A DNA stretch of 64,000 bases, taken from Planctomycetota bacterium (lineage in GTDB: Bacteria > Planctomycetota > UBA1135 > UBA2386). Both the position numbers and the translations under genes were made by a program. Each line of letters opens with the position of its first letter. Position 1 is the stretch's first letter. The stretch spans positions 6,336,001-6,400,000 of the forward strand of contig OZ245838.1 in NCBI GenBank assembly GCA_965228735.1. The letters run 5' to 3'. Under the pieces are notes generated by a model. That model saw only the letters and a list, made by a program, of their open reading frames with translations, was not told the DNA's origin and did not search any database. This document shows positions 2,136 to 55,220 of the stretch, piece after piece.

Positions 2136-3119
2136 ATGCGCGCTACCACCACCGCAACCGCCGTTCTCTTCACTGTCACCATCGCCACCGCCCAGGCCCA
2201 GATCCAGGCGGCGTTCGACCCCTACGGCGAGTCGTGCAACGGCACGAGCGAGTCGGCGTGCCTCACGCAGAACGACGTGGGTCCAAGTCTGTCCGTCGGG
2301 TCGTTGCCCAACGAGTATGCCTACCCCGTCGTGAACACGACGGGCAACCCGATCCAGGTCGTCGGGTTCGAGGTCTTCACGGTGACGAACACCAACCCGG
2401 TCGAGACCGTCAACACGGCGGTCCACCGCGACGCCTCCGGGGCGGGCGCGGTGACGCATACCGCGCCGGACTTCACGGCCGCCGCCGTCGGCACGATCAC
2501 GGTCACCAACGCGCAGGCGTTCTATGCGACGACGGTGTATCCGCCGCTGACGATCGCGCCGGGCGAAGCGTTCTGGATCGCGCACGACTGCTTCAGCATC
2601 GTCTCACCCGCGGAGAACCTCGGTGGTGTCGCCGGGCCGGCCACGGTGCACTGGCGCCGGCCGAGCTACAACGGCAACGCCTGGACGACCTCGTCGTCCG
2701 TGACGAATCCGATCTTCAAGATCCGTTGCCTCGCGAGCAACGTGCCCGCCCCGGGTCTCACGGCGTCGTCGTTGCCCCAGCTCGGCGGCAACTTCGTGCT
2801 GGACGTGGTGGGCGGCGCGCCGAGCCTGTTCGCGTTCGTGATCTACTCGTTCGACAACACCCAGGTGTTCGGGTTGCCGACGCCGGTCGATCTCGCCTTG
2901 TTCAATGCGCCCGGGTGCTTCGGCTACGTGTCGCACGACGTCACCATCACGCTGCAACTCGACACGATGGGCCATGGTTCGACCGCGCCGTTCGCGGTTC
3001 CGAACAACCCGCTGTTCGACGGCCTCGTCTGGTACAACCAGGCCGCGGTCATTGCCCCTGGCGTCAATCCGTTGAGCATGCTCGCGAGCAACGCGGGGCA
3101 GGCCACCGTCGGGATGTGA
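2136..3119 (+). CDS. Secreted protein of unknown function with the shared C-terminal domain
   Basis: Signal peptide MRATTT...ATAQAQ. Collinear with the C-terminal third of the S8 protease at 52404-55220. Confidence 0.75.
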   Translation: MRATTTATAVLFTVTIATAQAQIQAAFDPYGESCNGTSESACLTQNDVGPSLSVGSLPNEYAYPVVNTTGNPIQVVGFEVFTVTNTNPVETVNTAVHRDASGAGAVTHTAPDFTAAAVGTITVTNAQAFYATTVYPPLTIAPGEAFWIAHDCFSIVSPAENLGGVAGPATVHWRRPSYNGNAWTTSSSVTNPIFKIRCLASNVPAPGLTASSLPQLGGNFVLDVVGGAPSLFAFVIYSFDNTQVFGLPTPVDLALFNAPGCFGYVSHDVTITLQLDTMGHGSTAPFAVPNNPLFDGLVWYNQAAVIAPGVNPLSMLASNAGQATVGM

Positions 3120-3201
3120 CGCGGTCTCGAACCCGCGGCCGCATCGGGGGCTCGCCGAGCCTCCGGAGAGGTCGGCATGGGGTACACTTCGGGGTCTGCT
3201 C

Positions 3202-3879
3202 ATGCCCCGTTCCGACTCGAGTGCCCCGCATCGCGACCCGACGTCCTGGGGGCAGCTGATCGACAGCATCGACTCGGCGAACGTGTTCGTGCTGATCGCC
3301 GGTTGGCTCGGGCCGAAGGCGCGGCTGTCGGTCACGGTGGAGGACCTGTGGCAGGAGACCCTCTGGCTCGCCTGGCGCGACCGACAGCAGCACGAATGGG
3401 TCAACCTCCGCAAGTACCGGGCGTGGTTGCTCGGGATCGCGAAGCACCGAATCCGGGAGGTCGTGCGCAACCTCGGCCGGCAGAAGCGCGGGGGCGGCGT
3501 GCGGACGGATTCGCTGTCCGCGTTCGGCGGTGCGGACACGGCCGCTTCCTACCTGCCGCCGCAGTCGACGACGCCGAGTCGCGTCGCGTCCAACATGGAG
3601 CGGGCACGATCGCTCGAACAGGCGCTCGAGGCGCTCGACGAACCGTTGCGCGCGGTCGTGCGGTTGCGGCTGTTCGAGGAGGTGTCGTCGCAAGAGGCGG
3701 CTGACCGGCTCGCGATACCGCTGTCGACGGCGAAGGAGCGGTTCGTGCGCGGGACCAAGCGCTATCGGCTGGAGCTCGAGCGGTTGCTCGGCCGCGGCGG
3801 TGGCGACGGGGATCCGGACGACGGGGATGCCGACGACGGCGGCGCGTCGGCGACGACGACGCCGGGTGGGGCGCCGTGA
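3202..3879 (+). CDS. ECF sigma-70 factor (kinase-associated)
   Basis: EDLWQET...AWLLGIAKH region 2 and region 4 HTH (SSQEAADRLAIPLSTAKERF). GTGA overlap with the kinase. Confidence 0.85.
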   Translation: MPRSDSSAPHRDPTSWGQLIDSIDSANVFVLIAGWLGPKARLSVTVEDLWQETLWLAWRDRQQHEWVNLRKYRAWLLGIAKHRIREVVRNLGRQKRGGGVRTDSLSAFGGADTAASYLPPQSTTPSRVASNMERARSLEQALEALDEPLRAVVRLRLFEEVSSQEAADRLAIPLSTAKERFVRGTKRYRLELERLLGRGGGDGDPDDGDADDGGASATTTPGGAP

Positions 3880-6800
3880 CATCCGCGTCGCGTGACGATG
3901 ATCCCGCGTTCGCCGACCTGCTCGACGAACTGCTCGCGGCGTTGCTCGACGGCGAGGAGCCGGATCTCGTGAGCGTTGCCGAGCGCCACCCGGAGGCCCG
4001 CGAGCGGGTCGACGAGGCCTGGCGGCTGGCGTGTGACGTCGCGGGGCGGCGAGTGACGCCGCGACCGGTGCTCGGCGGCTACGAGGTCGTGCGGGAACTC
4101 GGGCGCGGCGGCATGGGATCGGTCTACCTCGCCAAGAACGAGCAGCTCGGCCGCGAGGTCGCCATCAAGGTGCTGCCGCACTCGTTCGGTCTGTCCGCAG
4201 CCAGCCGGCAGCGCTTCCTCGCCGAGGCGCGCGCGCTCGCGCAGGTGCACCACGAGAACATCGTCGGCATTCATCGCATCGTCGACGATGGTGAGCTGCT
4301 CGCGTTCGAGATGGAGTATGTCGATGGCCCGAGCCTGCAGACGCTCCTGTCGCACCTGCGCGCCGTGCGGGAGCGCACCGGCACCATGCCGACGCTGCGG
4401 GACGTCGCCGAACTGTTGCAGCTCGACGAGCATGCGCTCGGGGCTCGCAGCCTGACGCAGTTCTTCGTGCGGATCGGGCTCGCGGTCGCACGGGCGCTCG
4501 GCGCGGTGCACGACCGTGGGTTCGTGCATCGGGATGTCAAGCCGGCCAACATCCTGCTGCGGTGCGACGGCCAGCCCGTCCTGGCCGACTTCGGCCTCGT
4601 GCGCGACACCTCGCTGCAGCGCACGAGCCGGACCGGTTTCGCGGGGACGCCCGTCTACTCGTCTCCCGAGCAGATGCGTGGGCATTCGCCCGTCGGTTCG
4701 GCGACCGACGTCTACGCCCTCGCGGTGACGCTGTACGAATGCCTGACGCTGACGCCGCCGTTCGCGGGGCGCACGACGACGGACCTGTTGCGCCGGATCG
4801 AGGCTGGGCGGGTGCAGCCGTTGCGGCGACTCGCGCCCGATGCGCCGCGCGACCTCGAGACGATCGTCACGCGGGCGATGGAGCTGGAGCCGCACAACCG
4901 GTATGGCAGCGGTGGCGAACTGGCCGACGATCTCGAGCGGTTGCTCGAGCTGCGGCCGATTCGAGCGCGGCCCGTCGGGCTCGGTCGCCGACTCGGCAAG
5001 TTCTCGCGCCGCAACCGTGTCGCCCTGCTCGCCGGTTGTGCGGGTGCGCTCCTGGTGCTGCTGCTCGTCTGGCCGTTGTTCGCCCACGTGCAGGCCGCCG
5101 CCAGAGCCCAGGACGCGGCGGCGGCGCACGTTCAAAGCGCCCGCCAGCAGCTGCTGGCGCCGGCCTGTCGGGCGTTCGCTGCGGGTCGAACACGATCGTT
5201 CGCGGCGCGCGCTGTCGATCCGTCGGCGGATCCGCTGCAGTCGGCGGTTGCCGACTACGAACGCGCGCTCGCGCTGCAGCCGGCGAATGGCGCGGCGCGC
5301 GCCGAACTCGCGGTCGTGCGGATGGCGCTGTGGCAGCGCGACCTCACCGTGCAGAGTCGTGAGGGGCTCGCGGCGGCGATCGCAACGGCCGAATACGCGA
5401 CGCTCACGCGCGCGCTGCCGCCGCTCGTGCGCGAAGTCGCTCGCGGCATCGCGAGTGGAGCGGCGTTGCCGCCCGACCTGAGTGCGCGGCTGACGCGGGA
5501 CTCCGAGCGCGCGGCGCTCGGGTTGCTCGGCTACCTGCTCGGGGAACCCCGCCTGGTCGAGGTCGCCTGGGGAACGGCGGGCGTGGATGTCGGGAATGCC
5601 AGTCTGCGGGATGCGATCCAGGGTCTGCAGCTCCTGGCCGATGGCGACTCCGAGGCTGCATTCGCGCGGCTGCGCGCGGCCCATCGGTCGTTCCCCGATG
5701 TCGGCCTGGAGCTCGAACTCGCCGAGGCCGCGCTCGCGATGGGCGAGGTGACGCGAGCCGAACAGTGGTTCGGCCGCACGGCCGATTCCGGCGCCCGCGA
5801 TCCGCGGCGGCTGCGCGTGCGGGCGGACCTGCTCGCGGCGCGTGGTGACGATGAAGCGGCCGCCGCGCTGTACGGCGAGCTCGCGGAGGACTTCGTTCAT
5901 GATCCGACGCCGTTCTTCCGGCTCGCGCAGCTCGCCGCGCGCGCCGGCCGGCTCGAAGCCGCGGCGGCGCAACTCGAGGCGATCCTCGCCGCGTGGCCCG
6001 ACGAGCCGCGCTTTCGGCTGGCGCGCGCGCGGATCGCGCTGCAGCAGCGCGACAGCGCGCGCTACCTCTGGCAGGTGCTGGCCGTCCTGCGGCTCGATCC
6101 CGCGCGCCTGACCGCCGGTGGCGTCGCCCGGCGGCGCGAGATCCTGCGTATCGGCGGCCTGCTGCGGTTGCTCGGTGCCGACCTCGATCGGGCGGGCGGC
6201 CGGGTCGGAACCACGTTCCTCGGCGGCGAACAGCCCCTGCGCGCGCTGCTACCGAGCGAGCGGGTCGACCGACTCGAAGATCTCCTGCCGCACCTGGCCA
6301 TCGTGCTGGACTCGATGCCGGTCAGGATTCGCGGCGCGGGCATCGATCCCCTCACCCGTCGGTTGTTCGGCGAGTTGCCGTTGGCACTGGCGAGGCTGCC
6401 GGCCACCGCCGCCTGGCTCGGACCGGCACGGCGCTGGGCGTGCGAGCTGATGCCGACGGCCTTGTGGGCGGCCTATCCGACGCTCCAGCAGCTGCATCGG
6501 CAGCTGATCCTCACGTTGCCGGGTTCGGGCTGGAACTCCGTCGATCTGGTCGCGGTCGCGCCGCCGGTCGCGCTGCACCCCGTCCACGAGTTCGGCTCCG
6601 ACCTGCGCGTGGGCGCGGACTGGAACGGCGACGGCACGCCGGAGGTGCTCGTCGGCTGTCAGGCGAAGGACCCGCGATCGGCGCCGGGCCACGCGTTCGT
6701 CGTCGACGGACGGACGGCTGCCGTTCTCGCGTCGGTGGAACGACCGGCCGGCGACCACCTCTTCGGGTACGCCGTGCAGCTGCTCGGCGATGTCGATGGT

Positions 6801-7718
6801 GACGATGTCTCGGACTGGTGCGTCGGCGCTCCGGGTGGCGTCGCCGACGCGCGCGACGGCTTCGTCGAACTGCTGTCGGGCCGGGATCAGACCGTGATCG
6901 GTCGCGTGCGAGAGCCCGCCGTCGCTTTCGGAGTCGCGCTCGCGGCACTCGGCGATGTCGACGGTGACGGTGTGCCGGACTTCGCGGTCGGGGTGCCCCC
7001 GATCGTGCAGAACGCGACGCCTCAGGGCCACGTCTCGATCTACTCGGGGCGCACGCGGGAACGGCTGCGCGAGCTGCGGAACGACATCCCGGGCGTCTGG
7101 TTCGGGGCCTCCCTGGCAGCGGTCGGCGACGTCGATGACGACGGCTGCGTCGATCTGCTCGTCGGTGGCAACTATGGCGGCGCAGCAGGCCTCGTCCGGC
7201 TGTACTCGGGCCGCGCCGGCGTGCCGCTGCACGAGTGGCGCGACGCCTCGACGGTCAGCGGGTTCGGTGCGTTCGTGTACGGGTTCGGAGACCTGGACGG
7301 CGACGATGTCGGCGACATCGGCGTCGCGTCGGTCAGTGTAGACGGCCATCTGGCCGATCGCCTCGCCGTGTTCTCGGGCGCGGACGGGCGGACGCTCAAT
7401 GTCTTCGAATCCGGTCGACCGGGCTCACGTCTCGGGGTCGCTGCCGTGCGCTATGGCTGTGGCCTCGGGCCTCCGGTGCTCGCGATCGGAGCGCCGCTGG
7501 GTGGGAACGCGCAGACCGGTCTCGTCGAGCTGTGGTCGATCGACGGCCGGCCGCTGTCGTCGCTGCTCGGCGCCGCCCCGGCCGGGTTCTTCGGTGGTCG
7601 CCTGGTCTCCGTCGGCGACACGAACGGCGACGGTCGCGACGAGCTGTTCGTCAGCCGGGGGCGGGGCAACGGCGGGGTCGACCGTGTCGACTCGCGGAGC
7701 CTCACGATCTCCCGGTAG
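3876..7718 (+). CDS. Ser/Thr protein kinase with TM helix, TPR-like region and FG-GAP repeat propeller
   Basis: GRGGMG, VAIK, HRDVKPAN, DFG, GTPVYSSPEQ. TM LLAGCAGALLVLLLVWPLF. Six (G/A)DxxGDxxxD-type FG-GAP motifs. Confidence 0.92.
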   Translation: MTSASRDDDPAFADLLDELLAALLDGEEPDLVSVAERHPEARERVDEAWRLACDVAGRRVTPRPVLGGYEVVRELGRGGMGSVYLAKNEQLGREVAIKVLPHSFGLSAASRQRFLAEARALAQVHHENIVGIHRIVDDGELLAFEMEYVDGPSLQTLLSHLRAVRERTGTMPTLRDVAELLQLDEHALGARSLTQFFVRIGLAVARALGAVHDRGFVHRDVKPANILLRCDGQPVLADFGLVRDTSLQRTSRTGFAGTPVYSSPEQMRGHSPVGSATDVYALAVTLYECLTLTPPFAGRTTTDLLRRIEAGRVQPLRRLAPDAPRDLETIVTRAMELEPHNRYGSGGELADDLERLLELRPIRARPVGLGRRLGKFSRRNRVALLAGCAGALLVLLLVWPLFAHVQAAARAQDAAAAHVQSARQQLLAPACRAFAAGRTRSFAARAVDPSADPLQSAVADYERALALQPANGAARAELAVVRMALWQRDLTVQSREGLAAAIATAEYATLTRALPPLVREVARGIASGAALPPDLSARLTRDSERAALGLLGYLLGEPRLVEVAWGTAGVDVGNASLRDAIQGLQLLADGDSEAAFARLRAAHRSFPDVGLELELAEAALAMGEVTRAEQWFGRTADSGARDPRRLRVRADLLAARGDDEAAAALYGELAEDFVHDPTPFFRLAQLAARAGRLEAAAAQLEAILAAWPDEPRFRLARARIALQQRDSARYLWQVLAVLRLDPARLTAGGVARRREILRIGGLLRLLGADLDRAGGRVGTTFLGGEQPLRALLPSERVDRLEDLLPHLAIVLDSMPVRIRGAGIDPLTRRLFGELPLALARLPATAAWLGPARRWACELMPTALWAAYPTLQQLHRQLILTLPGSGWNSVDLVAVAPPVALHPVHEFGSDLRVGADWNGDGTPEVLVGCQAKDPRSAPGHAFVVDGRTAAVLASVERPAGDHLFGYAVQLLGDVDGDDVSDWCVGAPGGVADARDGFVELLSGRDQTVIGRVREPAVAFGVALAALGDVDGDGVPDFAVGVPPIVQNATPQGHVSIYSGRTRERLRELRNDIPGVWFGASLAAVGDVDDDGCVDLLVGGNYGGAAGLVRLYSGRAGVPLHEWRDASTVSGFGAFVYGFGDLDGDDVGDIGVASVSVDGHLADRLAVFSGADGRTLNVFESGRPGSRLGVAAVRYGCGLGPPVLAIGAPLGGNAQTGLVELWSIDGRPLSSLLGAAPAGFFGGRLVSVGDTNGDGRDELFVSRGRGNGGVDRVDSRSLTISR

Positions 7719-7848: not shown

Positions 7849-9264
7849 ATGACCGACCACCGATTCTCCGTTCGATTCTCGACGTTCGCTCTCGCCCTCG
7901 CGGCGCCCCTTGCCGCCCAGTGGGGTGAGCAGACCCCGGCCAGCGCGCCGTCCGCGCGCTCGGGTCACGGCATGTGCTTCGACGGCAGTCAGGCGCTGCT
8001 CGTTGGCGGCTCCGCCGGCTTCTCGACCAGCAACGAACTCTGGTCCTACGACGGTGCCAACTGGTCGGCCCTCGCCGCGTTGCCGAACGCTGGCGGCGTG
8101 ACCGGTGTCGAGCTGGTCTACGACTCCCTGCGCGGTGTCGCGGTGCTCTACGGCGGTCTCAACACCTCGTTCTTCGGCGGCCCGTCGATCGACGAGACCT
8201 GGGAGTTCGACGGGGTCAACTGGACGCAGAACCTCACCGCGACGACGACGCCCGGCGGCCTCGGCATCTACGGCGCCTGCTTCGACTCGACGCGGAACGT
8301 GATGGTCCTCTACGGCGGCAGCGCCGACTCGTTCTTCCCGATCGCCTCCGCGGCGCACTGGGAGTACGACGGCACGAGCTGGACCCAGGTCAGCGCCGCC
8401 GCGACGCCGGGCCCGCTCGAGCGCCCCGCGATGTGCTACCACGCCGGCGGCGGCGTGACCGTGATGTTCGGCGGCATCGACCCGCAGACCGGCGGGGTCG
8501 ACACGACCTGGCTGTACGACGGGGCGACCTGGCAGGCGGCGGGCGTGGCCGGGGCGCGGCCCGTCGAGCGCACGGGCTGCAAGATGGCCTACGACTCCGT
8601 TCGCGAGGTGTGCGTGCTGAGCGGCGGCATGAACCCGATGAACGGCCAGCCGATCGTCGACACCTGGGAGCTCGCGTTCGACGCGGGGACCACGACCTGG
8701 ACCTGGACGCAGGTGCCGACGAGCACGACGCCGCATCGCGACGGCGCGATGACGTTCCTCCCGGGCATCCGGCAGGTCGTCGAGTTCGGCGGCATCGATC
8801 CCGCGACGTTCTCGGATTCGGGCGCGACCTGGCACTACGGTGCGAAGGTCAGCACGTACGGCGCGGGCTGCGCCGGCACGTTCGGGGTCCCGAGCCTGAC
8901 GGCCGCCGACGCCCCGCGCCTCGGATTCGACTACGCCGTTACCCTCGGCAACCTCGATCCGGCCGCGACCATCGCGGCGTTCGTCATCGGTCTGTCGGAT
9001 CAGACGAGCACGTTCGGGGCGCTGCCGTTCGATCTCAGCGGTGCCGGCATGACGGGCTGCTCCCTGCTCGTGAGCAACGATGTCTCGGTGTTCATCGGCA
9101 CGGATCCTTCGGTGCCGGGCACGGCGACGCTGACGACCGCGCTGCCGAGCGACGTCACGTTCCTCGGGCTGCCGTGGTTCCACCAGGGCCTGTCACTCGA
9201 CTTCGCGGCCAACGCAGCCGGGCTGACGATCTCCAACGCCGTGGCGAGCACGGTCGGCAACTGA
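7849..9264 (+). CDS. Secreted Kelch-like beta-propeller protein with the shared C-terminal domain
   Basis: Signal peptide ending APLAAQ. Repeats of the form (L/M)(Y/F)GG...(D/E)TW.(Y/F)DG..W. Confidence 0.85.
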   Translation: MTDHRFSVRFSTFALALAAPLAAQWGEQTPASAPSARSGHGMCFDGSQALLVGGSAGFSTSNELWSYDGANWSALAALPNAGGVTGVELVYDSLRGVAVLYGGLNTSFFGGPSIDETWEFDGVNWTQNLTATTTPGGLGIYGACFDSTRNVMVLYGGSADSFFPIASAAHWEYDGTSWTQVSAAATPGPLERPAMCYHAGGGVTVMFGGIDPQTGGVDTTWLYDGATWQAAGVAGARPVERTGCKMAYDSVREVCVLSGGMNPMNGQPIVDTWELAFDAGTTTWTWTQVPTSTTPHRDGAMTFLPGIRQVVEFGGIDPATFSDSGATWHYGAKVSTYGAGCAGTFGVPSLTAADAPRLGFDYAVTLGNLDPAATIAAFVIGLSDQTSTFGALPFDLSGAGMTGCSLLVSNDVSVFIGTDPSVPGTATLTTALPSDVTFLGLPWFHQGLSLDFAANAAGLTISNAVASTVGN

Positions 9265-9266
9265 TC

Positions 9267-10640
9267 ATGCGCCGGGCTCTGGTTCTGCTCACGGCATCGC
9301 TCGCGTCGACATCGCTACCAGCCCAATGGGGAGCGGTGTCGACGACGGGCACTCCGGCTCCGCGCTCGGACGCGCTCCTCGCCTACGACCTGCCGAACCA
9401 GCGCATGCTGTTGTTCGGCGGGAACTGGAGCAACGACTTCTACAGCCTGCAGAACGGCGTCTACACCGCGCTGACGCCGGCGTCACTGCCGGGAGCGCGG
9501 ACTCGCGCCGCGATCGCGGTCGACTCCATCCTCGGCACCGTGGTGCTGTACGGCGGCGACGGGGGCGGAAGCCAGCTCGCGCTCGACGAAACGTGGCTCT
9601 GGAACGGGACCGACTGGCAGTTGCTGCAGACGACGGTCTCGCCGGGCGGTCTGGCGCGTCACTGCATGGCGTTCGACGTGGCTCGGCAGGAGACCGTGCT
9701 GTTCGGTGGTCGCCAGAACAGCTGGAACAGCACCCAGGCCTTCGGCGACACGTGGGTGTTCGACGGCACGGACTGGGCGATGGCGACGCCGCTGAACTCG
9801 CCGCCAGCGCGCCTGAACGCCGCGTTGGCGTATCACCCGGCGCTCGGCGGGGTGATGCTCCATGGTGGCGAGGATCCGCAGAGTGGTGCGCTGGGTGACT
9901 CCTGGTGGTTCGATGGCCTCGATTGGACGCAGCTGCCGACGACCGGGAACCAACCCTCACCGCGGAGCAAGGCCAACCTCGTGCCGATCCTCGGGCGCGC
10001 GGTGGTCGTGCTCCACGGCGGTGAAGATCCGACGACCCTCCAGATCCAGAACGACACCTGGGAGCACGACGGTTCGAGTTGGCGTCGCGTCGACAACGTC
10101 TACGGCGGCATCTACCCCGCGCGCCGCGGGGCCGCGGTGGCGCACGACTTCGCGCTGGACCGCCTCGTGGCGGTCGGCGGCAAGCTCGCCAACGGATCGT
10201 TGCGGAACGACACCTGGGAATACGGGGCGCAGTGGCAGCGGTTCGGAACCGGCTGCCCGGGCTCGAACGGCCGGCCGGACCTCGCCGGCGGCTCGCTGCC
10301 GCGGCTGGGGTTCACGTGCACGGCGGCGGTGACCAACCTGCCGCCCAGTGCGGGGGCAGCGATCATGACGGTCGGGCTCTCGCGCCAGCAGTGGGCCTTC
10401 GGTTCGCTGCCGATGCTCCTCGACCCGTTCGGCATGACGGGTTGCCGCGCCTACGCCAGCGCCGAGGTCGCGACTGCGGTCGCGGCGGTGGCCGGGGTCG
10501 CGAACTGGAGCTGGGCCGTGCCGAGCGATCCCGCGTTCGTCGGGCAGCCGTTCCATCTGCAGGCGATCGTCGTCGACCCGGCGGCCAACGCTGCCGGCGC
10601 GACCGTCTCCAACGCCGCCACGATGGTCGTCGGTTGGTAG
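9267..10640 (+). CDS. Secreted Kelch-like beta-propeller protein (tandem paralog) with the shared C-terminal domain
   Basis: ATG 2 nt after the upstream stop. Signal MRRALVLL...LPAQ. LFGG...DTW.(F/H)DG..W repeats. Confidence 0.85.
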   Translation: MRRALVLLTASLASTSLPAQWGAVSTTGTPAPRSDALLAYDLPNQRMLLFGGNWSNDFYSLQNGVYTALTPASLPGARTRAAIAVDSILGTVVLYGGDGGGSQLALDETWLWNGTDWQLLQTTVSPGGLARHCMAFDVARQETVLFGGRQNSWNSTQAFGDTWVFDGTDWAMATPLNSPPARLNAALAYHPALGGVMLHGGEDPQSGALGDSWWFDGLDWTQLPTTGNQPSPRSKANLVPILGRAVVVLHGGEDPTTLQIQNDTWEHDGSSWRRVDNVYGGIYPARRGAAVAHDFALDRLVAVGGKLANGSLRNDTWEYGAQWQRFGTGCPGSNGRPDLAGGSLPRLGFTCTAAVTNLPPSAGAAIMTVGLSRQQWAFGSLPMLLDPFGMTGCRAYASAEVATAVAAVAGVANWSWAVPSDPAFVGQPFHLQAIVVDPAANAAGATVSNAATMVVGW

Positions 10641-34371: not shown

Positions 34372-34405
34372 GCCGCGAGGCTGGGCAGGAGCCTGAGGCA
34401 GATCG

Positions 34406-35871: not shown

Positions 35872-36111
35872 CGCCGCCCGCCTCGCGGGCCGCCGGGCGC
35901 CTGCGGGCAAACCCGCACCCGGCGCCTCCGGTCCGGCTTCCGGGACGGCTGCGGCGCTGGTGAATCCGGCCGCGATCCGCCCCGCCGGCGTCTCAATCCG
36001 AGCGCACCTGCAACCTTCCTAAAGCGACGTTTCTGCGCGCGTCGATGAGGGATGTGGCGAGACGGTCGGGGGACCGTTCGACCACACCACCAGCTCGCAA
36101 CGGCTACACCA

Positions 36112-37098: not shown

Positions 37099-37109
37099 GG
37101 AGGCGACCC

Positions 37110-38101: not shown

Positions 38102-38260
38102 ATGGCTGCCAGAAAGAAGGCCACCAAGAAGAAGGCGACCAAGAAGAAGGCCACCAAGAAGAAGGCCACGCGCAAGAAGGCCACCAAGAAGAAGGCGACC
38201 AAGAAGAAGGCCGCCAAGAAGAAGAAGAAGGCGACCCGCAAGAAGGCCGCCAAGAAGTAG
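38102..38260 (+). CDS. 52-aa Lys-rich histone H1/protamine-like protein
   Basis: MAARKKATKKKATKKKATKKKATRKKATKKKATKKKAAKKKKKATRKKAAKK*. AAGGA 7 nt upstream and a terminator downstream. Not in the ORF track. Confidence 0.85.
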   Translation: MAARKKATKKKATKKKATKKKATRKKATKKKATKKKAAKKKKKATRKKAAKK

Positions 38261-42785: not shown

Positions 42786-45347
42786 TCAGCGACCGCGCTT
42801 CTTGCCGTGGCCCGTGCCGTGCGCGCCGTCCTTCCCGGGCAGCTTCAGCCCGCGCGCGTTGCGCGGGAAGTCGATGGCCTCGCCGCGCAGGCCCGCCGCA
42901 GCGATGTCGGCGAGGTCCGAGCACGTCTTCGACACGAAGCGGTTCTGCAGCGTGCGCGATCGTTCGAGCAGCGCCTCGGCGGTCTCGAATCCCGCGGTCG
43001 CCACGTCGTGGGCCTCCTGGAAGTGCCGGCGTGCCAGTTCGGCATCCTCGACCTCACCGCCGAGCGCAACGAGGTGCTCCGCGAGCTGCGAGCTGACGAA
43101 CGCGAACGTGCTCTGGACCAGCGCGTTCTGCGGATCCCGGTCGCGCAGGAAGATCAGTTCGTCGCGGCTCGTCCGTAGCAGCCGTTCGCCCTTCTCGAGG
43201 TCGTGGCCGCGGCACAGCGCGAAGCCGTAGACCCCGCGGATCTTCGCGCGCAGATGGCGCGCGACGATGTCGTCGGGATGTCGGTCGGCGAGCTCGAGGA
43301 CCTGCAGCGCGGTGGCGTGGCTCTGGAGCTCGCGTTCGTGGTCGGGCAGCCGCGAGTAGGCCTGACCGAGCCGGTAACAGAGGTTGCCGAGCGCCATCGC
43401 CGTGTCGAGGTCGTCCGGGTGGTCGCTGCGGATCTCCGTGAGGATCGCGCAGCCGTCCTTCAGGTGGGCGACCTCGGCCTCGGTGTCGGCGACCATGATC
43501 GCGACCGACGCGCGGCAGTTCTTCACCCGGGCGCGATCGAGGCGCAGGTCGAGGCCTTCGACGGGCGGCAGCTCGGCGAGGCGGTCGACGGTTGTCGCGG
43601 CGATATCCCAGTAGCGTTCGGCCGTCGGCATGTCGCGCGTGCGGTTGTAGGCCGTCGTGCCGCGTTGGAACGCGAGCTCCTTCCGCAGGTGGAGCACGCG
43701 GGGATCGTCGGGGGCCGCCGCGAGCAGCACATCGATGTGGCGCTCGCACTGGGCGTAGCTGTGGTCGGTGCGCGCGATCGCGTCCTTGTCGCGGCCGTTG
43801 TTGCGCTGGATGCCGCCGAGCTCCAGGTAGGCCCGGGCGAGCTGCCGGCGGCGATCGTCGTCGATCGTCAGCTCGTGCTCGAGGAACTCGAGCTGCGTCG
43901 CGGCCTCGGCGATCAGCGTCCCGCGCAGCTCGGTCGCGTGCGGCACGTCGCGCAGGCGACGCGGCAGGTCGAGCACGGTATGGATCGCCATGTCGAACGT
44001 GCGCTGCAGGGCGTCCTCCTTCGCCGCGGATTCCTCGACGGCCAGGCGTTCGGCGTCGTGGGCGCGGAACGCGTAGACGACGCTCGACGCGCCGCCGATC
44101 GTCGAGATCAGCACGATGGCCAGAGCCGACGCGACGAGCCCACGCCGGCGCCGCGCGAACATCCGGAGCTGATAGCGCAGGCTCGGTGGGCGGGCGGTGA
44201 TCGGCTGGTGGTCGAGGTGGCGCTGCAGGTCCTCGCCGAGGCTGCCGGCCGAGCCGTAGCGCTGCTGCGGGTCCTTGCTGAGGGCCTTCTGCAACACGAC
44301 TTCGAGGTCGACGTCGAGATCGGGTCGCACCGTCCGCAGCGGGGTCGCCTCGCGTTCGGCGAGGATGCGGCCGACCTCCGGCAGGCCGCGGCCAGCGAGG
44401 TCGAACGGCAGGCGCCCGGCGAGCTGTTCGAACAGCATGACGCCGAGGGCGTGCACGTCGCTGCGCGTGTCGAGGATCTCGTCGCCGCGGATCTGCTCCG
44501 GGCTCATGTAATGCAACGTGCCGAGCACGTCGCCCGTGCGCGTGAGCTGCTCCGGCACCGAGTCGGAGATGCTGCGCGCGATGCCGAAGTCGATGACCTT
44601 CACGTTGCCGTCGCCGTCGACGAGCACGTTGTGCGGCTTGAGGTCGCGGTGGACGACGCCGCGTTCGTGCGCGTGCTGAACCGCAGCACAGATCGTCACG
44701 AAGAGCGCGATGATCTCGCGGTCGTCGAGCTCCTGCGAGCGCACCCAGTCGCCGACGACGCGCGCATCCTCGACGTACTCCATCACGAAGAACGGCCACC
44801 GCAGATTGCCCATCGCCGTGGCTTCTTCGTGCACGCCCGCGGCGTGGATCTGCGCGATGCCCGGGTGCTGCAGGCGGGCGAGCAGTTCGCATTCGTTGCG
44901 GAAACGTTGCAGCGACTCGCCCGTGTCCGACAGGGTCGCCGTGAGCAGCTTGAGCGCGACGCGGCGGCGCGGTTGTTCCTGTTCGGCGAGGTAGACCGTG
45001 CTCATGCCGCCCTGGCCGAGCAACTCCAGCACGTGGTAGCCGCCGATCTTGCGGCCCCGCGCGAGCACGCGTTCGGCCGACGCGACGAGCGCCCGGTGCG
45101 AGGAGTCCGGATCGAGCCGGTCCGGCTGGTCCGTGATCTCGCGCAGCAGCGCCTCGACCTCCGCGCGCAACGCGGGCGCGGCGTTCGCGAGAGCCGCCGC
45201 GCGGGCCGGCGCCGCCAGCTCCACGCAACGCTCGAACAGCTCGCGAACCTCGCCCCAGTCGGGCGTCGGGCCCGTGGCGCCGGCGTCGGCGGGCGGGCCA
45301 GAAGCGGGATCACCAGCAGGCGGATCGACGGGCGGCTCGGCGGTCAT
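42786..45347 (-). CDS. Ser/Thr protein kinase with TM helix and TPR-like C-terminus
   Basis: GQGGMSTVY, VALK, HRDLKPHN, DFG, GTLHYMSPEQ. TM LVASALAIVLISTIGG. Confidence 0.93.
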   Translation of the reverse strand: MTAEPPVDPPAGDPASGPPADAGATGPTPDWGEVRELFERCVELAAPARAAALANAAPALRAEVEALLREITDQPDRLDPDSSHRALVASAERVLARGRKIGGYHVLELLGQGGMSTVYLAEQEQPRRRVALKLLTATLSDTGESLQRFRNECELLARLQHPGIAQIHAAGVHEEATAMGNLRWPFFVMEYVEDARVVGDWVRSQELDDREIIALFVTICAAVQHAHERGVVHRDLKPHNVLVDGDGNVKVIDFGIARSISDSVPEQLTRTGDVLGTLHYMSPEQIRGDEILDTRSDVHALGVMLFEQLAGRLPFDLAGRGLPEVGRILAEREATPLRTVRPDLDVDLEVVLQKALSKDPQQRYGSAGSLGEDLQRHLDHQPITARPPSLRYQLRMFARRRRGLVASALAIVLISTIGGASSVVYAFRAHDAERLAVEESAAKEDALQRTFDMAIHTVLDLPRRLRDVPHATELRGTLIAEAATQLEFLEHELTIDDDRRRQLARAYLELGGIQRNNGRDKDAIARTDHSYAQCERHIDVLLAAAPDDPRVLHLRKELAFQRGTTAYNRTRDMPTAERYWDIAATTVDRLAELPPVEGLDLRLDRARVKNCRASVAIMVADTEAEVAHLKDGCAILTEIRSDHPDDLDTAMALGNLCYRLGQAYSRLPDHERELQSHATALQVLELADRHPDDIVARHLRAKIRGVYGFALCRGHDLEKGERLLRTSRDELIFLRDRDPQNALVQSTFAFVSSQLAEHLVALGGEVEDAELARRHFQEAHDVATAGFETAEALLERSRTLQNRFVSKTCSDLADIAAAGLRGEAIDFPRNARGLKLPGKDGAHGTGHGKKRGR

Positions 45348-45437
45348 GGCAGGGGACTCCCCAGGAGAGAGCGTCCGAGCGCCCCGCGTTTTCCGCGCAT
45401 TCGGCGAGGGCCCGGCCGCGCCAAACTCGGCGGCCGG

Positions 45438-46016
45438 TCACTCGCCGGCACCGTTGCCACGGCTCAACTCCCGGAGCAGGAACGCGCGGGCCAGTTCCCA
45501 GGACCGAAATACCGCGGCGCGGCTCCGTTCGAGCGTGTCGGCGGTCTCCTGCAGCGTGAGGCCGCCGAAGAACCGCAGCTCGACGATCTCCTCGAGTTCG
45601 GGGTCGCGTTGCGCGAGGCGTTCGAGCGCGGCCTGCAGGTCGAGCACGGCGATGCGCTCGTCCGGCCCGGGGCCGATGGCGATCGCGACCTCGTCCTCGG
45701 CCGGCAGCGACTCGGTCGGCCGGCGGCGGCGGCGGCGGGCATGATCCACGAGGACGTTGCGCATGACGCGGCCGGCGAGGCGGACGAAATGTCGGCGGTC
45801 GCCGATGCCCTCCGCGGCGGGCTGCAGGCGCATCCAGGCCTCGTGCAGCAGGGCGGTCGGCTGCAGCGTCGAGTTCGCCGGTTCGCGCCGCATCATCGAG
45901 CGGGCGCGGGCGTGCAGGTCCGCGTAGAGCAACGGCATGAGCTCGTCCGCGGCGGTCGATTCGCCGCGCTGCAGCCGCGTCAGGAGCTGCGTGATCTGGG
46001 CCGCGGTGTCGGTCAT
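45438..46016 (-). CDS. ECF sigma factor, ECF43/TIGR02999-like
   Basis: ITQLL...LMPLLY.DL...TLQPTALLHEAWMRL...MRNVLVDHARR...VELRFFGGLT. Confidence 0.9.
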   Translation of the reverse strand: MTDTAAQITQLLTRLQRGESTAADELMPLLYADLHARARSMMRREPANSTLQPTALLHEAWMRLQPAAEGIGDRRHFVRLAGRVMRNVLVDHARRRRRRPTESLPAEDEVAIAIGPGPDERIAVLDLQAALERLAQRDPELEEIVELRFFGGLTLQETADTLERSRAAVFRSWELARAFLLRELSRGNGAGE

Positions 46017-47781: not shown

Positions 47782-47840
47782 CGGCAGCAGTGTGCCATTC
47801 CTCGCTCCGTCACGCTCGGATTGCTACAAATACCGCCCCC

Positions 47841-49870: not shown

Positions 49871-49872
49871 GG

Positions 49873-50045
49873 ACCCGTACGGAACCAGCACCCGTACGGA
49901 ACCAGGTTCATGCTGCCGGCCGCCGGAACGCTACCCGCGAGGTAAACCGCTCGCGGCCGGCAGCATGAACCTGGTTCCGTACGGGCTCAGCGAGGTAAAC
50001 CGCTCGCGGCCGGCAGCATGAACCTGGTTCCGTACGGGCTCAGCG
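49873..50045. repeat. REPIN/MITE-like hairpin with partial duplications
   Basis: Perfect 33-bp inverted repeat (49891-49923 / 49953-49985). Exact 53-bp tandem duplication (49937-49989, 49990-50042). Extra 16-nt left-end copy at 49873. Confidence 0.9.
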
Positions 50046-52247
50046 GATCGGGCCGAGGAACAGGAAGCCGTTGAGTTCGCCGCCTTCGACTGCGCCGATG
50101 CCGACGTGCAGCGGCGCGATGTTGAGGTCGACGGCGACGAAGCCGCTGCCGCCGACGAGCATGTCCTCGAACTGGTCGTCGCGCTGCGCCCAGGCGCCGC
50201 CGAGCTCGATCGAGGCGCCGACGAAGATCGGGGCGATGCCCTCGTAGATGCGATGCCGGGCCATCACGGTGCCGAACGCGACGTGCTGGCCCGAGATCGA
50301 GCCCGCCGGCAGGCCGGACAGCTGCAGGAAGCCGCCGATCGCCGACCGCGCGTAGCCGGGCCGGGTTTCGCTCAGCGTCGTGTCGTAGGCGGCGATCCCG
50401 GTCAGCGTGAAGTCGGTCCAGGTCGCGGCCTGGAGCCAGGTCAACGCGATCGCCTGGTAGTCCGCGTTGCCGCCCAGGCTTTCGAACCCGGTACTGTAGG
50501 CGAGGGACGCGAGCGTGCCGTCGCTCGGGAACAGGCCCCGGTCGAGCGTGTCGACGACGAGCTCGGCGCGGAACACGCTGTCGTCGAACTCGATCGTCGG
50601 GATCGCGGTTCCCGCGATGTTGAGGCCGACGTCGATGCGGCCGTGGGCCCGGCGCCAGCCGACGCGGAGCTCGGCGCACGAGTTGATCTGCGTGCCGATG
50701 TCGAGCCCACCCGCGAGGTACTCGAACGTCGTCTCGCCGAGCTTCTCGCTGCCGGCGTAGGCATCGGCGGAGGCTTCGATCGCGGCCACGGTCGGCGCGA
50801 CGAACAGTGTCCGGTCCGCGAAGAGCGGCTGGTAGAACTCGAACTCCACGCGCGACTGCAGCCCGATCCCGAGCGACGTGCGAAACTCCGCGCCGAGGGC
50901 GTTGAGGTGTTTCGCCGTGTGCAACGCCTGGATCTGATAGCTCGACGCGTCCTGGAAGTTCGACTGCAGCTGGAGCCCGACCGCGAGCGTGTCGACGCCC
51001 CACTCCTTGTCCTCCGGGCGCACGACGAGATCGGCTTCACCGCCCGCGACGTTCTCGAACGCGAACCCGATGCGCTGCACGTCGTCGGTGCCGTAGAGCG
51101 TGGCGATACCGGCGCGGAGCCGAGTCTCCTCGACTGGTTGCCCCGGCTCGACGCCGAGCCGCGCGCGCAGCACCGGGTCGGGGATGCTGCTCCGGTTGTC
51201 GAGCAGGATCTCGCGAATGCGTGGCAGCGCCCGGTCGGTGCGGCGCTGGCGCTGCAGGAATCGCGCGTATTCCGCCTCGCTGACCGCGAAGCGCCGCAGA
51301 TCGGCGGCAGCCGCCGCCGCCGCGGCCTTGCCGAGGGCGATCAACTCGGCGGCGCGGGCGAACTGTGTCGCGGTGATGTCGCCCAGCTCGGGTTGGATCA
51401 GAAGGTCGCGGTCGGTCAGGCTCGCGAGGCTGCGGTCCACGTTCTGCTGCGTGAGGATCGCGAACATCTGCGTCGTGACGTCGACCAGGTCGGCGACCGC
51501 GTCCTCGTCGGCCAGCGGCGCGCCGATGTCGACGGCGATCACGACGTCGCAGCCGAGCGCGCGCGCGACTTCGATCGGGACGTTGTTCGTGAGGCCGCCG
51601 TCCAGCAGTTCGCGGCCGCCGATTCGCGCGGGGGCGAACACGCCCGGCACCGACATGCTCGCGCGCATCGCCATGGCCAGGTTGCCGTCACCGAGCACGA
51701 CCTGGGCGCCCGTGCCGAGCGCAACCGCGACGCAGCGGAACGGCAGCGGCAGTTCGTCGAAGGTGTCGAGGTCGTGGGCCGCAGTGGTGAGAAAGCGCAG
51801 CTCGGTCTCGAGGTTCTGGCCCTGGATCCAGCCCTTCGGCAGCCCGATCTTCCAGCCGTCGACGCCGAAGCGGTTGGCGCCGACGATGCCGCGCGACTCC
51901 TCCTTGCGGCGGTAGTCGAGCGCCTTGCGCCCGTCGCCGTCGCTCAGCAGGTAGTCCCAGTCGCGGTCGCTGCCCTCGCGCGTGAGCATCCGCTCGAGTT
52001 CGCGCGGCGAGTAGCCGTAGGCGTAGAGGCCGCCGACGATCGACCCCATGCTCGTGCCGACGACGCAGTCGACGGGTACGCGGAGTTCTTCCATGACCTG
52101 CAGGACACCGGCGTGCGCGGCGCCGCGCGCGCCGCCGCCGCTCAGCACGAGGCCGATGCGCGGCCGTTCCTGCGATGCTACCGGCGCCGCGGCAAGGAGC
52201 GCGGCGAGGCCGAGGTGCGAGAGTGGGCGTCGGAGGAACGAGGACAT
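50040..52247 (-). CDS. Patatin-like phospholipase with POTRA and Omp85-type barrel (PlpD/type Vd-like)
   Basis: LSGGGARG, GTSMG, DGG catalytic motifs. Signal peptide. C-terminal amphipathic beta strands. Confidence 0.88.
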   Translation of the reverse strand: MSSFLRRPLSHLGLAALLAAAPVASQERPRIGLVLSGGGARGAAHAGVLQVMEELRVPVDCVVGTSMGSIVGGLYAYGYSPRELERMLTREGSDRDWDYLLSDGDGRKALDYRRKEESRGIVGANRFGVDGWKIGLPKGWIQGQNLETELRFLTTAAHDLDTFDELPLPFRCVAVALGTGAQVVLGDGNLAMAMRASMSVPGVFAPARIGGRELLDGGLTNNVPIEVARALGCDVVIAVDIGAPLADEDAVADLVDVTTQMFAILTQQNVDRSLASLTDRDLLIQPELGDITATQFARAAELIALGKAAAAAAAADLRRFAVSEAEYARFLQRQRRTDRALPRIREILLDNRSSIPDPVLRARLGVEPGQPVEETRLRAGIATLYGTDDVQRIGFAFENVAGGEADLVVRPEDKEWGVDTLAVGLQLQSNFQDASSYQIQALHTAKHLNALGAEFRTSLGIGLQSRVEFEFYQPLFADRTLFVAPTVAAIEASADAYAGSEKLGETTFEYLAGGLDIGTQINSCAELRVGWRRAHGRIDVGLNIAGTAIPTIEFDDSVFRAELVVDTLDRGLFPSDGTLASLAYSTGFESLGGNADYQAIALTWLQAATWTDFTLTGIAAYDTTLSETRPGYARSAIGGFLQLSGLPAGSISGQHVAFGTVMARHRIYEGIAPIFVGASIELGGAWAQRDDQFEDMLVGGSGFVAVDLNIAPLHVGIGAVEGGELNGFLFLGPIR

Positions 52248-52403
52248 GACGTCGCGGCAATCGGGCTGCGGTCGCGGCCCGCGCAGCCTACCTTTCGCCG
52301 GTGCGAACGTCAGCCCTGCTGCGGGTGGTAGCGATCCCATGCGCGGCGCGGAGACGGTAGACTCCTGCGCGTCTGCCCTCGCTTGCCCATCCTTCAGGCT
52401 TTC

Positions 52404-55220
52404 ATGCACCAACTCTCCTCCCTGGGCGCCGTCCTCGCGTGCGCCATCGGCTTCTCCGTCTCGGCTCAGGCCCAGGACGAATCGTCACGCATCCGGCTGC
52501 GCTACGAGTCCTTCGATCCGCTCGCCGGCGAGCCCGCCATGCCGGCGACGCTGCAGAGCCGCGGTGACGAGCGCCTCTTCATCGTCCAGTTCGCCGGCAC
52601 GCCGACGCAGGTCGGTCGCGACGGCATCGACCAGGCCGGTGGTCAGGTCCACGGCTACCTGCCGGACAACGCCTACGTCGTTCGCATGGGCGAACCGAAC
52701 GCCGATGCCGTCCGGTCGCTGCCGACCGTGCGCTGGGTCGGTCGCTACCACGCGGCGTTCCGCCTCGATCCGGCGCTCATCACCGCCATGCAGAACGGTG
52801 ACGTCGAGCGCGCGCGCTACAACATGGTCGTCGTCGACAAGCACAACGACAAGCCGGCGCTCGCGGCCAACATCCGAGCACTCGGTGGCGTGGTCGAGGA
52901 CGAGCACTTCGGCAGCCTGCTGTTCTCGGCGACGCTGACGCAGGATCAGCTCGTGGCGACGGCGCACCTCGACGAGGTGCTCTGGATCGATGCCTGGACG
53001 CCGGACGAGATCGACGTCGACAACGCCCGCATCCAGGGTGGCGCCAACCACGTCGAGTCGCAGGCCGGCTACACGGGTGCCACGATCAACCTGCACATCT
53101 ACGAAGGCATCGACGTCAATCACCCGGCCTACTCGGGGCCGGTCATCAACGTCAACAGCGGCGGTGCGAACTCGGGCCACGGCACGAACACGGCCGGCAT
53201 CGTCTTCGGCAACGGCACGGGCAACCCGCAGTTCCGCGGCTTCGCGCCCGACGCGGGCAAGTTCTACACCAACTACAGCTCGGTCACGACGTCGCGCTGG
53301 CAGGTGTGCAGCGACCTCATCAACGTGCACGACGTGAGTCACACGACCGCGTCATGGGGTGGTGGCCGCACGTTCTTCTACACCTCGGTCTCGGCCGAGA
53401 CGGACGACATCATCTTCGACCACGACATCGCGTGGACGCAGAGCCAGAGCAACGCGGGCAACCAGGACTCGCGGCCGCAGGCCTGGGCGAAGAACATCTT
53501 CTCGATCGGCGGCGTGCGCCACGGCAACAACGCCGATCCGCTCGACGACAGCTGGAGCAACAGCGGCAGCACCGGCCCGGCCCAGGACGGCCGCATCAAG
53601 CCGACGCTCGCCGCCTACTACGATCAGATCGGCACGACCAGCAGCGGCGGTGGCTACACCACGAGCTTCGGCGGCACCTCGGGCGCGACGCCGATCGTGG
53701 CCGGCCACAATGCCCTCGCGATCGAGATGTTCGCCGACGACAGCGGCAGCCCGGGCGTGAACCCGTTCGGCAATCCGCTGCGCGTCCCGGGTGGCACGAC
53801 GCACCAGAACCGGCCGCACTTCACGACGCTGAAGTGCATGCAGGTCGGAAGCGCCGCGCAGTACGCGTTCAATGCGGCCAGCACGGACAACCGTCGCGAG
53901 CACGTGGGCTGGGGCTTCCCCAACCTGCGCAAGCTCTGGGACAACCGCATGAAGACGCTGATCGTCGACGAGACGGACGTCCTGACGCAGGGGCAGAGCA
54001 CCTCGTACACGATCGTCGTGCCGGCGGGTGAGAACAGCTTCCAGGCCGTGCTGCACTACGCCGAGGTCGCCGGCAACCCGTCGGCGCAGAGCCAGCTCGT
54101 CAACAACATGTCGCTGCGCGTCACGTCGCCGAACAACACGGTCTACTGGGGCAACAACGGTCTCGAGCAGGGCAACTGGTCGGTCGCCGGCGGCAGTGAG
54201 GACAACACCAACCCGATCGAGTGCGTCTTCGTGCAGGATCCGGCGCCCGGCAACTGGACCGTCGAGGTCCTCGCGACCGCCATCGTCGTCGACAACCACG
54301 TCGAGACGGCGGCCGTCGATGCCGACTACGGTCTGTTCGTCTCGAGCTCGCGTGACCCGGTGTTCGCGACGTTCGACAAGTACGGTCAGGGCTGCCCCGG
54401 TTCGGTCGTGGAGCCCTATTGCGCCGGACTCAACGAGAACGGTGGTTCGCTCACGAACAACACGAACACCTATGAGTACTGCTTCGTCGTGAGCGGCCTC
54501 GGCAGCGCGCAGGTGCAGAGCTTCGACATCTACACCTACTCCAACTCCGGCACGCTCAACCGTCCGGCCCACATCTACCTGCCGAGCGGCAACGGTCCGA
54601 GCACGACGCCGCTGGCGACGACGACGATCACCGTCGGCTCGACGCCCGGGTTCTACACCGCGACGTTCAACCCGCCGGTCGCCGTGAACGGCACGTTCTA
54701 CATCGGCTACGAGAACTCGCCTGGTGGCATCATCTCGAACCTGAGCTCCGGCGCGACCGGCACGGGCTACTACCGCACCGCGGTGACGGGCTCGTGGAAC
54801 CAATCGAGCCTCGTGCAGCGGCCGTCGTGGCGCGTCAGCTGCAGCAACGGTGGCTTCGCGGCGCCGTCGCTCGGCAACGTCGGGTTGCCGGTGATGGGCA
54901 CGAGCTACGACGTCACGCTCGCCGACGCCGCGGCCTCGGCCGCGACGTTCTCGCTGACCGGGTTCTCGGACACGGTCTACCAGGGCACGGCGCTGCCGGC
55001 GCCGATCCCGGGCGCGCCGGGCTGCGACATCTACGCGGCGCCGGACTTCACGCAGCTGATGTTCACGTCGGCTGCCGGCACCGCGTCGGCGACCTACGCC
55101 GTGCCGACCTCGATGACGTTCCTCGGCTTCGACATCTACCACCAGTGGGCGGTGCTCGACGCGGTCAACTCGATCGGCATCGTGGTGTCCGAGGCCGGCA
55201 AGGCCTCGATCGGGCAGTAG
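52404..55220 (+). CDS. Secreted S8 (subtilase) serine peptidase with prodomain and the shared C-terminal domain
   Basis: GYLPDNAY prodomain, HGTNTAG, STGP.QDGRIKP, FGGTSGATP, GWG.P. Confidence 0.88.
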   Translation: MHQLSSLGAVLACAIGFSVSAQAQDESSRIRLRYESFDPLAGEPAMPATLQSRGDERLFIVQFAGTPTQVGRDGIDQAGGQVHGYLPDNAYVVRMGEPNADAVRSLPTVRWVGRYHAAFRLDPALITAMQNGDVERARYNMVVVDKHNDKPALAANIRALGGVVEDEHFGSLLFSATLTQDQLVATAHLDEVLWIDAWTPDEIDVDNARIQGGANHVESQAGYTGATINLHIYEGIDVNHPAYSGPVINVNSGGANSGHGTNTAGIVFGNGTGNPQFRGFAPDAGKFYTNYSSVTTSRWQVCSDLINVHDVSHTTASWGGGRTFFYTSVSAETDDIIFDHDIAWTQSQSNAGNQDSRPQAWAKNIFSIGGVRHGNNADPLDDSWSNSGSTGPAQDGRIKPTLAAYYDQIGTTSSGGGYTTSFGGTSGATPIVAGHNALAIEMFADDSGSPGVNPFGNPLRVPGGTTHQNRPHFTTLKCMQVGSAAQYAFNAASTDNRREHVGWGFPNLRKLWDNRMKTLIVDETDVLTQGQSTSYTIVVPAGENSFQAVLHYAEVAGNPSAQSQLVNNMSLRVTSPNNTVYWGNNGLEQGNWSVAGGSEDNTNPIECVFVQDPAPGNWTVEVLATAIVVDNHVETAAVDADYGLFVSSSRDPVFATFDKYGQGCPGSVVEPYCAGLNENGGSLTNNTNTYEYCFVVSGLGSAQVQSFDIYTYSNSGTLNRPAHIYLPSGNGPSTTPLATTTITVGSTPGFYTATFNPPVAVNGTFYIGYENSPGGIISNLSSGATGTGYYRTAVTGSWNQSSLVQRPSWRVSCSNGGFAAPSLGNVGLPVMGTSYDVTLADAAASAATFSLTGFSDTVYQGTALPAPIPGAPGCDIYAAPDFTQLMFTSAAGTASATYAVPTSMTFLGFDIYHQWAVLDAVNSIGIVVSEAGKASIGQ

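Follow-up and report, generated by a model that had tools for sequence, protein, structure and literature searches.

PEP-CTERM/exosortase tags, which combine a short motif, a helix and a basic tail, occur on many unrelated surface proteins, and other Planctomycetota carry a GC-type dockerin, the dockerin fold being a calcium-binding helical module. C-terminal domains (CTDs) of type IX secretion systems (T9SS) measure 67–108 amino acids (aa) and hold a conserved Lys in the last strand, according to PMC11285876. For type II secretion, PMC7949064 describes the export of folded cargo through structural determinants, which in Pel3 include a loop of its Fn3 domain. Here we describe a domain of ~130 aa on six proteins encoded in a window of 64,000 nucleotides, positions 6336001–6400000 of the single 7.19-Mb contig (~70% G+C) of a Planctomycetota genome, hereafter G000. 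Like the type A T9SS CTD of Bacteroidota (PF18962, Por_Secre_tail), it is a predicted immunoglobulin (Ig)-like sandwich, present once per Sec-exported protein, attached to unrelated cores and mostly C-terminal, and it marks the bulk of a secretome. Like dockerin-type modules, it is single, apparently uncleaved and usually terminal, and would place unrelated passengers at the surface. With the Fn3 domain of Pel3/PelI it shares a fibronectin type III (FnIII)-like fold, a Sec-exported enzyme, a secretin-bearing cell and a structural rather than linear signal. The domain follows T9SS-CTD or dockerin logic and is a member of neither.

A sequence-only reading of the window had proposed that six secreted proteins with different cores share one C-terminal tail. 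All six open reading frames (ORFs) were confirmed at the claimed starts, and our family scan agreed with the cores named there: two Kelch, two CCP_MauG and one Peptidase_S8, with no family for the protein at 2136. The genes and their domain copies are listed below in window positions, with expectation values (E) and, for the template of the structure model, the predicted local distance difference test score (pLDDT).

2136–3119 (+): signal-peptide protein, 327 aa, with the domain split by an inserted beta-sandwich and otherwise coreless
2223–2237 (+): domain strand 1 of the 2136 protein (YGESC, holding the first Cys)
2259–2729 (+): insert of ~157 aa in the 2136 protein, beta-rich, with two bounding Cys, uncatalogued
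2730–3116 (+): rest of the domain of the 2136 protein (E 3.4e-28)
7849–9264 (+): Kelch propeller with signal peptide and C-terminal domain, 471 aa
8854–9261 (+): domain copy of the 7849 Kelch protein (E 1.3e-32)
9267–10640 (+): Kelch propeller with signal peptide and C-terminal domain, 457 aa
10239–10637 (+): domain copy of the 9267 Kelch protein, template of the structure model (E 9.9e-37, pLDDT 97.4)
17377–19062 (+): di-haem cytochrome c peroxidase/MauG-family protein, two CxxCH motifs, diverged C-terminal domain, 561 aa
18676–19059 (+): diverged domain copy of the 17377 peroxidase (E 1.5e-10)
19067–20716 (+): di-haem cytochrome c peroxidase/MauG-family protein, two CxxCH motifs, diverged C-terminal domain, 549 aa
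20330–20713 (+): diverged domain copy of the 19067 peroxidase, without Cys (E 1.7e-11)
52404–55220 (+): S8 subtilase with signal peptide and split C-terminal domain, 938 aa
54381–54395 (+): domain strand 1 of the S8 protein (YGQGC)
54420–54842 (+): insert in the domain of the S8 protein, homologue of the 2136 insert (E 6.6e-5)
54843–55217 (+): rest of the domain of the S8 protein (E 5.9e-28)

Over their final 135 residues, the proteins at 2136, 7849, 9267 and 52404 matched one another with pairwise E values of 4e-6 to 3e-25. The two peroxidase tails matched each other (E 9e-22), and their best pairwise E against the other four was 0.009, which is not significant; they were nevertheless recovered at E 5.3e-7 and 1.2e-8 when a profile whose seed excluded them was iterated once, and reversed-sequence decoys gave no match to the domain profiles. 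The six tails therefore share one domain, as proposed, with one copy on each protein. That all six end in the same pattern held for the domain and not for its continuity, since the copies at 2136 and 52404 are interrupted after the first motif by ~140–160 aa. The insert in these two copies (2259–2729 and 54420–54842) is itself an uncatalogued, Cys-bounded beta-sandwich, for which the Atlas leads DUF7901, Lectin_like and DUF4082 all scored <0.9. The peroxidase copies had correctly been called diverged, and the accompanying statement that they lack the second Cys required correction: the 19067 tail has neither Cys, and in the 17377 tail one Cys lies close to the first position and a second sits in a late loop. 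Fusion of a di-haem peroxidase to the domain recurs across the order (loci L064, L075, L079, L080 and L082) and in G172, a genome of another class (L171:3969–5666), and is among the most conserved carrier types.

Carriers were counted in the 5,524 gene calls of the genome itself at E<1e-3 with the final profile of 133 columns. This analysis identified 337 carriers (~6% of genes) and no reversed decoys. The domain ends within 10 aa of the C-terminus in 307 carriers (91%), is followed by 11–50 residues in 17 and is N-terminal or internal in 13; the expected genome-wide recurrence and C-terminal bias were thus both found, whereas strict C-terminal placement was not. Six of the 21 copies in G172 have at least 197 aa behind them, some copies sit directly after the signal peptide, the domain is internal in a propeller-cytochrome protein (L083 and L085), and it lies upstream of a MAM domain in four proteins (hhalign 84%, E 7.5e-6; control 0.11%). 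At least 10 proteins consist of a signal peptide and the domain alone, with variable loops, and 22 candidate split copies were found. A second copy on one protein was seen in none of the 337 carriers of G000 and in none of the 150 best public matches. By similarity, the passengers in G000 form 120 clusters, of which 97 have a single member, and 65 sampled from the 150 listed public matches included 41 Kelch-type propellers and 8 PKD proteins.

In public data, 24,201 clusters (50% identity) matched at E≤1e-3, and 148 of the best 150 of these clusters carry the domain at the C-terminus. The nearest Atlas clusters and the named cluster members of the domain belong to Planctomycetota. The domain is present in 150 of the 151 genomes of the class and in 26 of the 121 genomes sampled across the phylum, with a near all-or-none distribution; outside the class, this sample comprised 18 genomes from nine families with 7–34 matches each, one with a single marginal match and 95 with none, counts in which related genomes are not independent and diverged subtypes, such as the homologous one that a single family has of its own, are under-counted. 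Members are ~30% identical, and a word-indexed homologue search returned two matches only. No family of Pfam-A or NCBIfam 20.0 matched the six tails or 62 other members above noise (the 62 members at E≤1), a sequence search of the PDB gave nothing below E 0.18, and literature searches, whose scope excluded most subscription papers and all supplements, returned no description of the domain. These results bear out the view that a shared, uncatalogued and lineage-restricted domain sits on diverse exported proteins, and the possibility that the tails are a known ligand-binding domain found no match in Pfam, NCBIfam or the PDB sequences.

An AlphaFold model of the domain, built with 62 sequences (pLDDT 97.4; predicted template modelling score 0.89), contains seven main strands with a 30-residue insertion past the third. 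The model predicts an Ig/FnIII-like sandwich with a hydrophobic lid tied down by a disulfide. This lid would comprise the first strand and the LPxxLxxxGxPGC loop, shut by a predicted Cys6–Cys68 bond. The near-invariant positions are Gly, Pro, Gln108 and the two Cys, whereas the final residue of the domain is not conserved. Among 194 members with both Cys columns filled, 152 have both, 30 neither and 12 a single one; this coupling of Cys6 with Cys68 makes it likely that a disulfide links the first strand to the inserted loop. Structural matches were generic Ig and FnIII folds (best Z 8.7, root-mean-square deviation 3.1, 94 of 133 residues aligned; 811 chains at Z≥5), and Foldseek gave nothing clear (template modelling score, TM, at most 0.53), with weak rows for the HPI S-layer protein (TM 0.47), TapA (TM 0.43) and HBP35 (TM 0.43). 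The comparison with T9SS CTDs and Ig folds suggested by the sequence-only reading thus supports an Ig-like fold, and no T9SS CTD appeared among the top 50 structural matches. The split protein at 2136 was modelled with a pLDDT of 92.6 and an unchanged strand order, and a fold search with this split form gave no clear match. In composition, the last 125 aa have a median grand average of hydropathy of +0.41, compared with −0.08 for the passenger, the tail being higher in 261 of 269 proteins; the domain contains 0.2% Lys and 1.7% Glu, and its median net charge is −3.

Compared with the 67–108 aa and last-strand Lys of the T9SS CTD, the present domain has ~130 aa, a predicted disulfide-tied lid and almost no Lys, and while the T9SS CTD is always last, the domain is also found N-terminal, internal and split. 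None of the 62 members matched Por_Secre_tail or related models of Pfam and NCBIfam at E≤1. PorV (NF033709) had no match in G000 (93% complete) and exceeded the cut-off in none of five genomes, with a positive control, whereas genome searches for SprA, PorP/SprF and Por_Secre_tail were empty with their controls silent too. A diverged Peptidase_C25-like protein without the domain is encoded at G000:C1:3598143–3600809 (−) (L001 and L002) and is not obviously PorU. The domain shares with a PEP-CTERM-type tag its role as a common C-terminal element; unlike the tag it is folded, a helix followed by a basic tail is present in none of the 337 carriers, and NCBIfam gave no match. The dockerin is a calcium-binding helical fold, whereas the domain is an all-beta Ig fold, and no cohesin-like scaffold was found among 710 proteins scanned. 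Finally, the Pel3 signal is composite and specific to one protein, whereas a single dedicated domain is found here on ~340 proteins, and the structural match to Pel3 is generic, with no sequence similarity.

Signal peptides were found to accompany the domain, as the sequence-only reading had anticipated. By a simple rule, a signal peptide ending before Gln is present in 260 of 334 carriers and in 703 of 4,372 other genes. This genome-wide prevalence of signal peptides that end just before Gln resembles the Q-rule of Bacteroidota. Eight of the 334 carriers have a lipobox-like start (~3 plausible by eye), and one has a twin-arginine (Tat)-like start. We then related the domain to composition, measured outside the last 140 residues, in proteins of at least 300 aa with a Sec-type signal peptide and no membrane helix. 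The domain is present in 191 of 239 proteins with <10% Lys+Glu+Arg, in 46 of 63 with 10–12%, in 10 of 47 with 12–14% and in none of 462 with ≥14%; periplasmic controls have 13.9–22.3%, and the peroxidases at 17377 and 19067 are, with 13.1% and 10.7%, the least extreme of the six window proteins. Seven further low-charge (<10%) proteins match the domain at E<0.1. Of the 41 low-charge proteins without a match, 27 have scores that exceed the 99th percentile among 771 controls, and four, all MAM proteins, have an alignment that matches the domain internally. A few low-charge exported proteins lack any copy, for example the S8-MAM protein at 891893. Overall, the domain covers at least 191, and probably ~225, of the 239 extracellular-type signal-peptide proteins. 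A model trained on G000 gave a corresponding result in G172, with the domain on 15 of 40 extracellular-type and 0 of 151 periplasm-type proteins.

Of 19 paralogue pairs matched by fold, 16 have more Lys+Glu+Arg in the partner that lacks the domain; this difference is wide in the sulfatase, propeller and oxidase pairs and in most of the peroxidase pairs, and narrow when that partner is a lipoprotein. Extracellular proteins are described as richer in Asn, Ser and Thr, poorer in Arg and of low-cost composition in PMC2932507. The Sec signal peptide and folded periplasmic intermediate that are traits of type II substrates are both indicated for the carriers, by the 260 of 334 signal-peptide patterns, the coupled Cys pair and six carriers with CxxCH. 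Judged by amino-acid composition, the carriers are likely extracellular. Because the domain is found on low-charge exported proteins and never on periplasm-type ones, it likely holds its proteins on the outer cell surface.

A cognate translocon or sortase was sought by phylogenetic profiling, and none of three candidates was co-distributed with the domain. The comparison covered 2.27 of the ~2.7 Mb (84%) of G172 against the 5,524 G000 genes: 1,268 G172 ORFs were matched, 292 of them passed a filter for signal peptides, and the Pfam scan covered 173 of the latter. The filter dropped proteins with more than one membrane helix, with at least 50% identity or with the domain, and inner-membrane enzymes were outside the comparison because multi-helix proteins were dropped. 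The shared set consisted largely of ordinary enzymes of the periplasm, BamA, efflux proteins, flagellar proteins and four secretins, and most shared proteins without a Pfam match resemble, on reading, ordinary periplasmic enzymes. Among the profiled candidates no dedicated partner was found, multi-helix membrane proteins lying outside the filter. A 1,735-aa pseudopilin is present in 66 of the 121 phylum genomes, including 24 of 25 clear carriers and 41 non-carriers; a long secretin is present in 109 of 121, far beyond the carriers; and a Big_5 lipoprotein module is too narrow, with 3 of 121. A multicopper oxidase with barrel-ended paralogues, at first sight an autotransporter swap, reads instead as a CopA-CopB-type fusion and was set aside.

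Secretins are nonetheless common: each of five carrier genomes, one of 1.8 Mb, has 5–8 secretin matches. G000 has seven, at loci 2199409, 3403055, 4032691, 6538780, 6627290 and 6769699/6781951, together with GspD/E/F, G-J and K-like genes, assigned from T2SSG and Secretin matches on the G172 orthologues, a weak T2SSK match and gene order. The 1,735-aa pseudopilin-like protein belongs to no Pfam family, is single-copy and lies in a pilin cluster at G000:C1:1397583–1414788 (L207). At 6769699–6784599 (upper part in L212), two secretins of 840–880 aa flank ExbB, two ExbD and TPR genes. Both loci are conserved and adjoin each other in G172 (L094, L102 and L137), and they may together be a secretin system not described before, with a motor of the ExbBD type. 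Separately, four large related proteins are encoded between the rpoBC region and a prepilin-peptidase-like gene at G000:C1:2689303–2703361 (L213); two of them match Big_5, at least one has a lipobox, and the module that was profiled is family-restricted.

As to function, the sequence-only reading had proposed an export or surface-anchoring system. A tie to a likely extracellular location is supported, the profiled candidates yielded no cognate translocon or sortase, and of the two functions anchoring is somewhat favoured because of the predicted hydrophobic lid, the free position, the stand-alone copies, the exchanges with lipoprotein anchors and the absence of a translocon with a matching distribution. 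We give about an even chance to the view that the domain is a folded, uncleaved, non-covalent anchor on the outer surface, with export likely through secretins. A carrier would be exported by Sec and lose its signal peptide, would fold, form its disulfide and, in the peroxidases, acquire haem in the periplasm, and would then cross the outer membrane folded through a secretin (type II-like) system, whereupon the hydrophobic lid would dock in or on that membrane. The domain would thereby play the role that a lipid anchor has in lipoproteins. In two long paralogue pairs the anchor appears swapped: the domain protein at G000 1245429 is 57% identical over 573 aa to the lipoprotein at 2655148, and that at 2504882 is 36% identical over 865 aa to the lipoprotein at 3254946. 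Several points weigh against anchoring, however. The location of the carriers rests on amino-acid composition, and the signal peptides on simple pattern rules that also pass 16% of background genes. Lipoprotein swaps are few (the two long pairs and one short common segment), and lipoproteins could have their own route to the surface. In the model, many of the hydrophobic residues probably lie buried under the lid, and an anchor does not account for 91% C-terminal placement. Near-complete coverage and strict single copy suit an export signal no less well, since modules that bind a surface with low affinity usually come as repeats. The same coverage and copy number speak for the main rival, in which a secretin (type II-like) machine recognises the folded domain wherever it stands and moves the protein out, surface retention being secondary or absent, which we regard as possible though rather unlikely. 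The seven secretin matches and Gsp-like genes of G000 agree with it, as does the Pel3 precedent of type II structural determinants including an Fn3 loop (PMC7949064), the Pel3 Fn3 structure (4u49) being matched at Z 7.4, rank 39. But that match is one of hundreds of generic Ig/FnIII matches, the distribution of the secretin systems does not follow that of the domain, the stand-alone proteins would be signals without cargo, and some extracellular-type proteins, such as the S8-MAM protein, have no copy. The anchor and export-signal readings are compatible with each other. A more specific combination, which we hold to be unlikely and offer tentatively, is that the domain is a position-independent folded export signal that routes the whole secretome (~6% of genes) through a secretin machine, possibly that of the twin-secretin/ExbB-ExbD/giant-pseudopilin locus, and then serves as a surface tether.

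The remaining explanations differ in what the domain would bind. Self-assembly into an S-layer-like lattice or fibre that displays the fused passengers is improbable in our judgement: high hydrophobicity, few charges, ~340 paralogues and stand-alone copies with variable loops would suit it, and the Foldseek rows for the HPI S-layer protein and TapA point the same way, but those rows are generic, the members are only ~30% identical and no conserved dominant subunit was identified. Slightly less credit still goes to a dockerin-like role, in which the domain would bind, one-to-one, the repeated modules of a scaffold protein. Its single copy and terminal preference are as expected; however, a repeat scan of the 710 G000 proteins with at least 380 aa and low Lys+Glu+Arg gave no domain-free protein of clear 130–150-aa tandem modules common to G172, a scan that diverged repeats could escape, five scaffold candidates that were looked up had no G172 match, the Big_5 lipoproteins are confined to three of the 121 genomes, and none of the 62 members matched a dockerin or cohesin in Pfam or NCBIfam. 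The sequence-only reading had itself pointed to a C-terminal signal of the T9SS-CTD or PEP-CTERM type. The corresponding explanation is a T9SS CTD or sortase-type tag that would be cut off and give way to a covalent anchor. The Ig-like fold, the C-terminal preference, the Sec signal peptides and the surface-protein passengers are shared with such tags, but the N-terminal, internal, stand-alone and split copies mean that the domain is not a terminal peptide signal. Its length and the lack of Lys in the last strand also depart from the T9SS CTDs (as given in PMC11285876), PorV was not found in G000 although its control was positive, the single C25-like protein is without the domain, and no carrier has the helix and basic tail. 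We therefore consider this explanation largely refuted and extremely improbable. Relative to the starting observation, the new results are the partition by composition, the copies that are split, internal or N-terminal, the single copy, the lipoprotein swaps and the three rejected machinery candidates.

Several other features of the window were recorded. At 3202–7718 (+), 42786–46016 (−) and 55336–59684 (+), a gene for a large Ser/Thr kinase is paired with one that is presumably like an extracytoplasmic function sigma factor, and two of these three pairs adjoin carrier genes. Across the genome, members of two sigma-like clusters lie within two genes of a carrier more often (39 of 105 and 10 of 17) than the base rate of 18%. 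Between carrier genes, the segment 11115–17353 encodes a GT2 glycosyltransferase (lipopolysaccharide/glycan), along with genes that we take to be heptosyltransferase- and sugar-kinase-like. A 735-aa exported protein at 50040–52247 (−), divergent from the S8 gene, has what we take to be a patatin-like N-terminus and may be a PlpD-type patatin-barrel fusion. Elsewhere we assume two roadblock/MglB-like genes with an MglA-like GTPase at 31165–37622 (+), a ParD/ParE-like small gene pair at 1171–1784 (+) and a 52-aa Lys-rich histone-like ORF at 38102–38260 (+).

The family is very large and yet is found in neither Pfam nor NCBIfam. With a single profile, ~6% of the genes of several largely uncultured lineages of Planctomycetota would be annotated and localised, and since the domain separates extracellular-type from periplasm-type signal-peptide proteins almost perfectly, it would serve as a secretome predictor for these bacteria. 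Should the domain be an export signal, a secretin system would have a modular signal shared by its substrates, in a class for which the recognition of substrates is an open question. As an anchor, the domain would represent a new non-covalent and position-free way of displaying folded enzymes on a Gram-negative surface, and if it acts first as an export signal and then as a tether, it would combine type IX-like logic with type II-like hardware.

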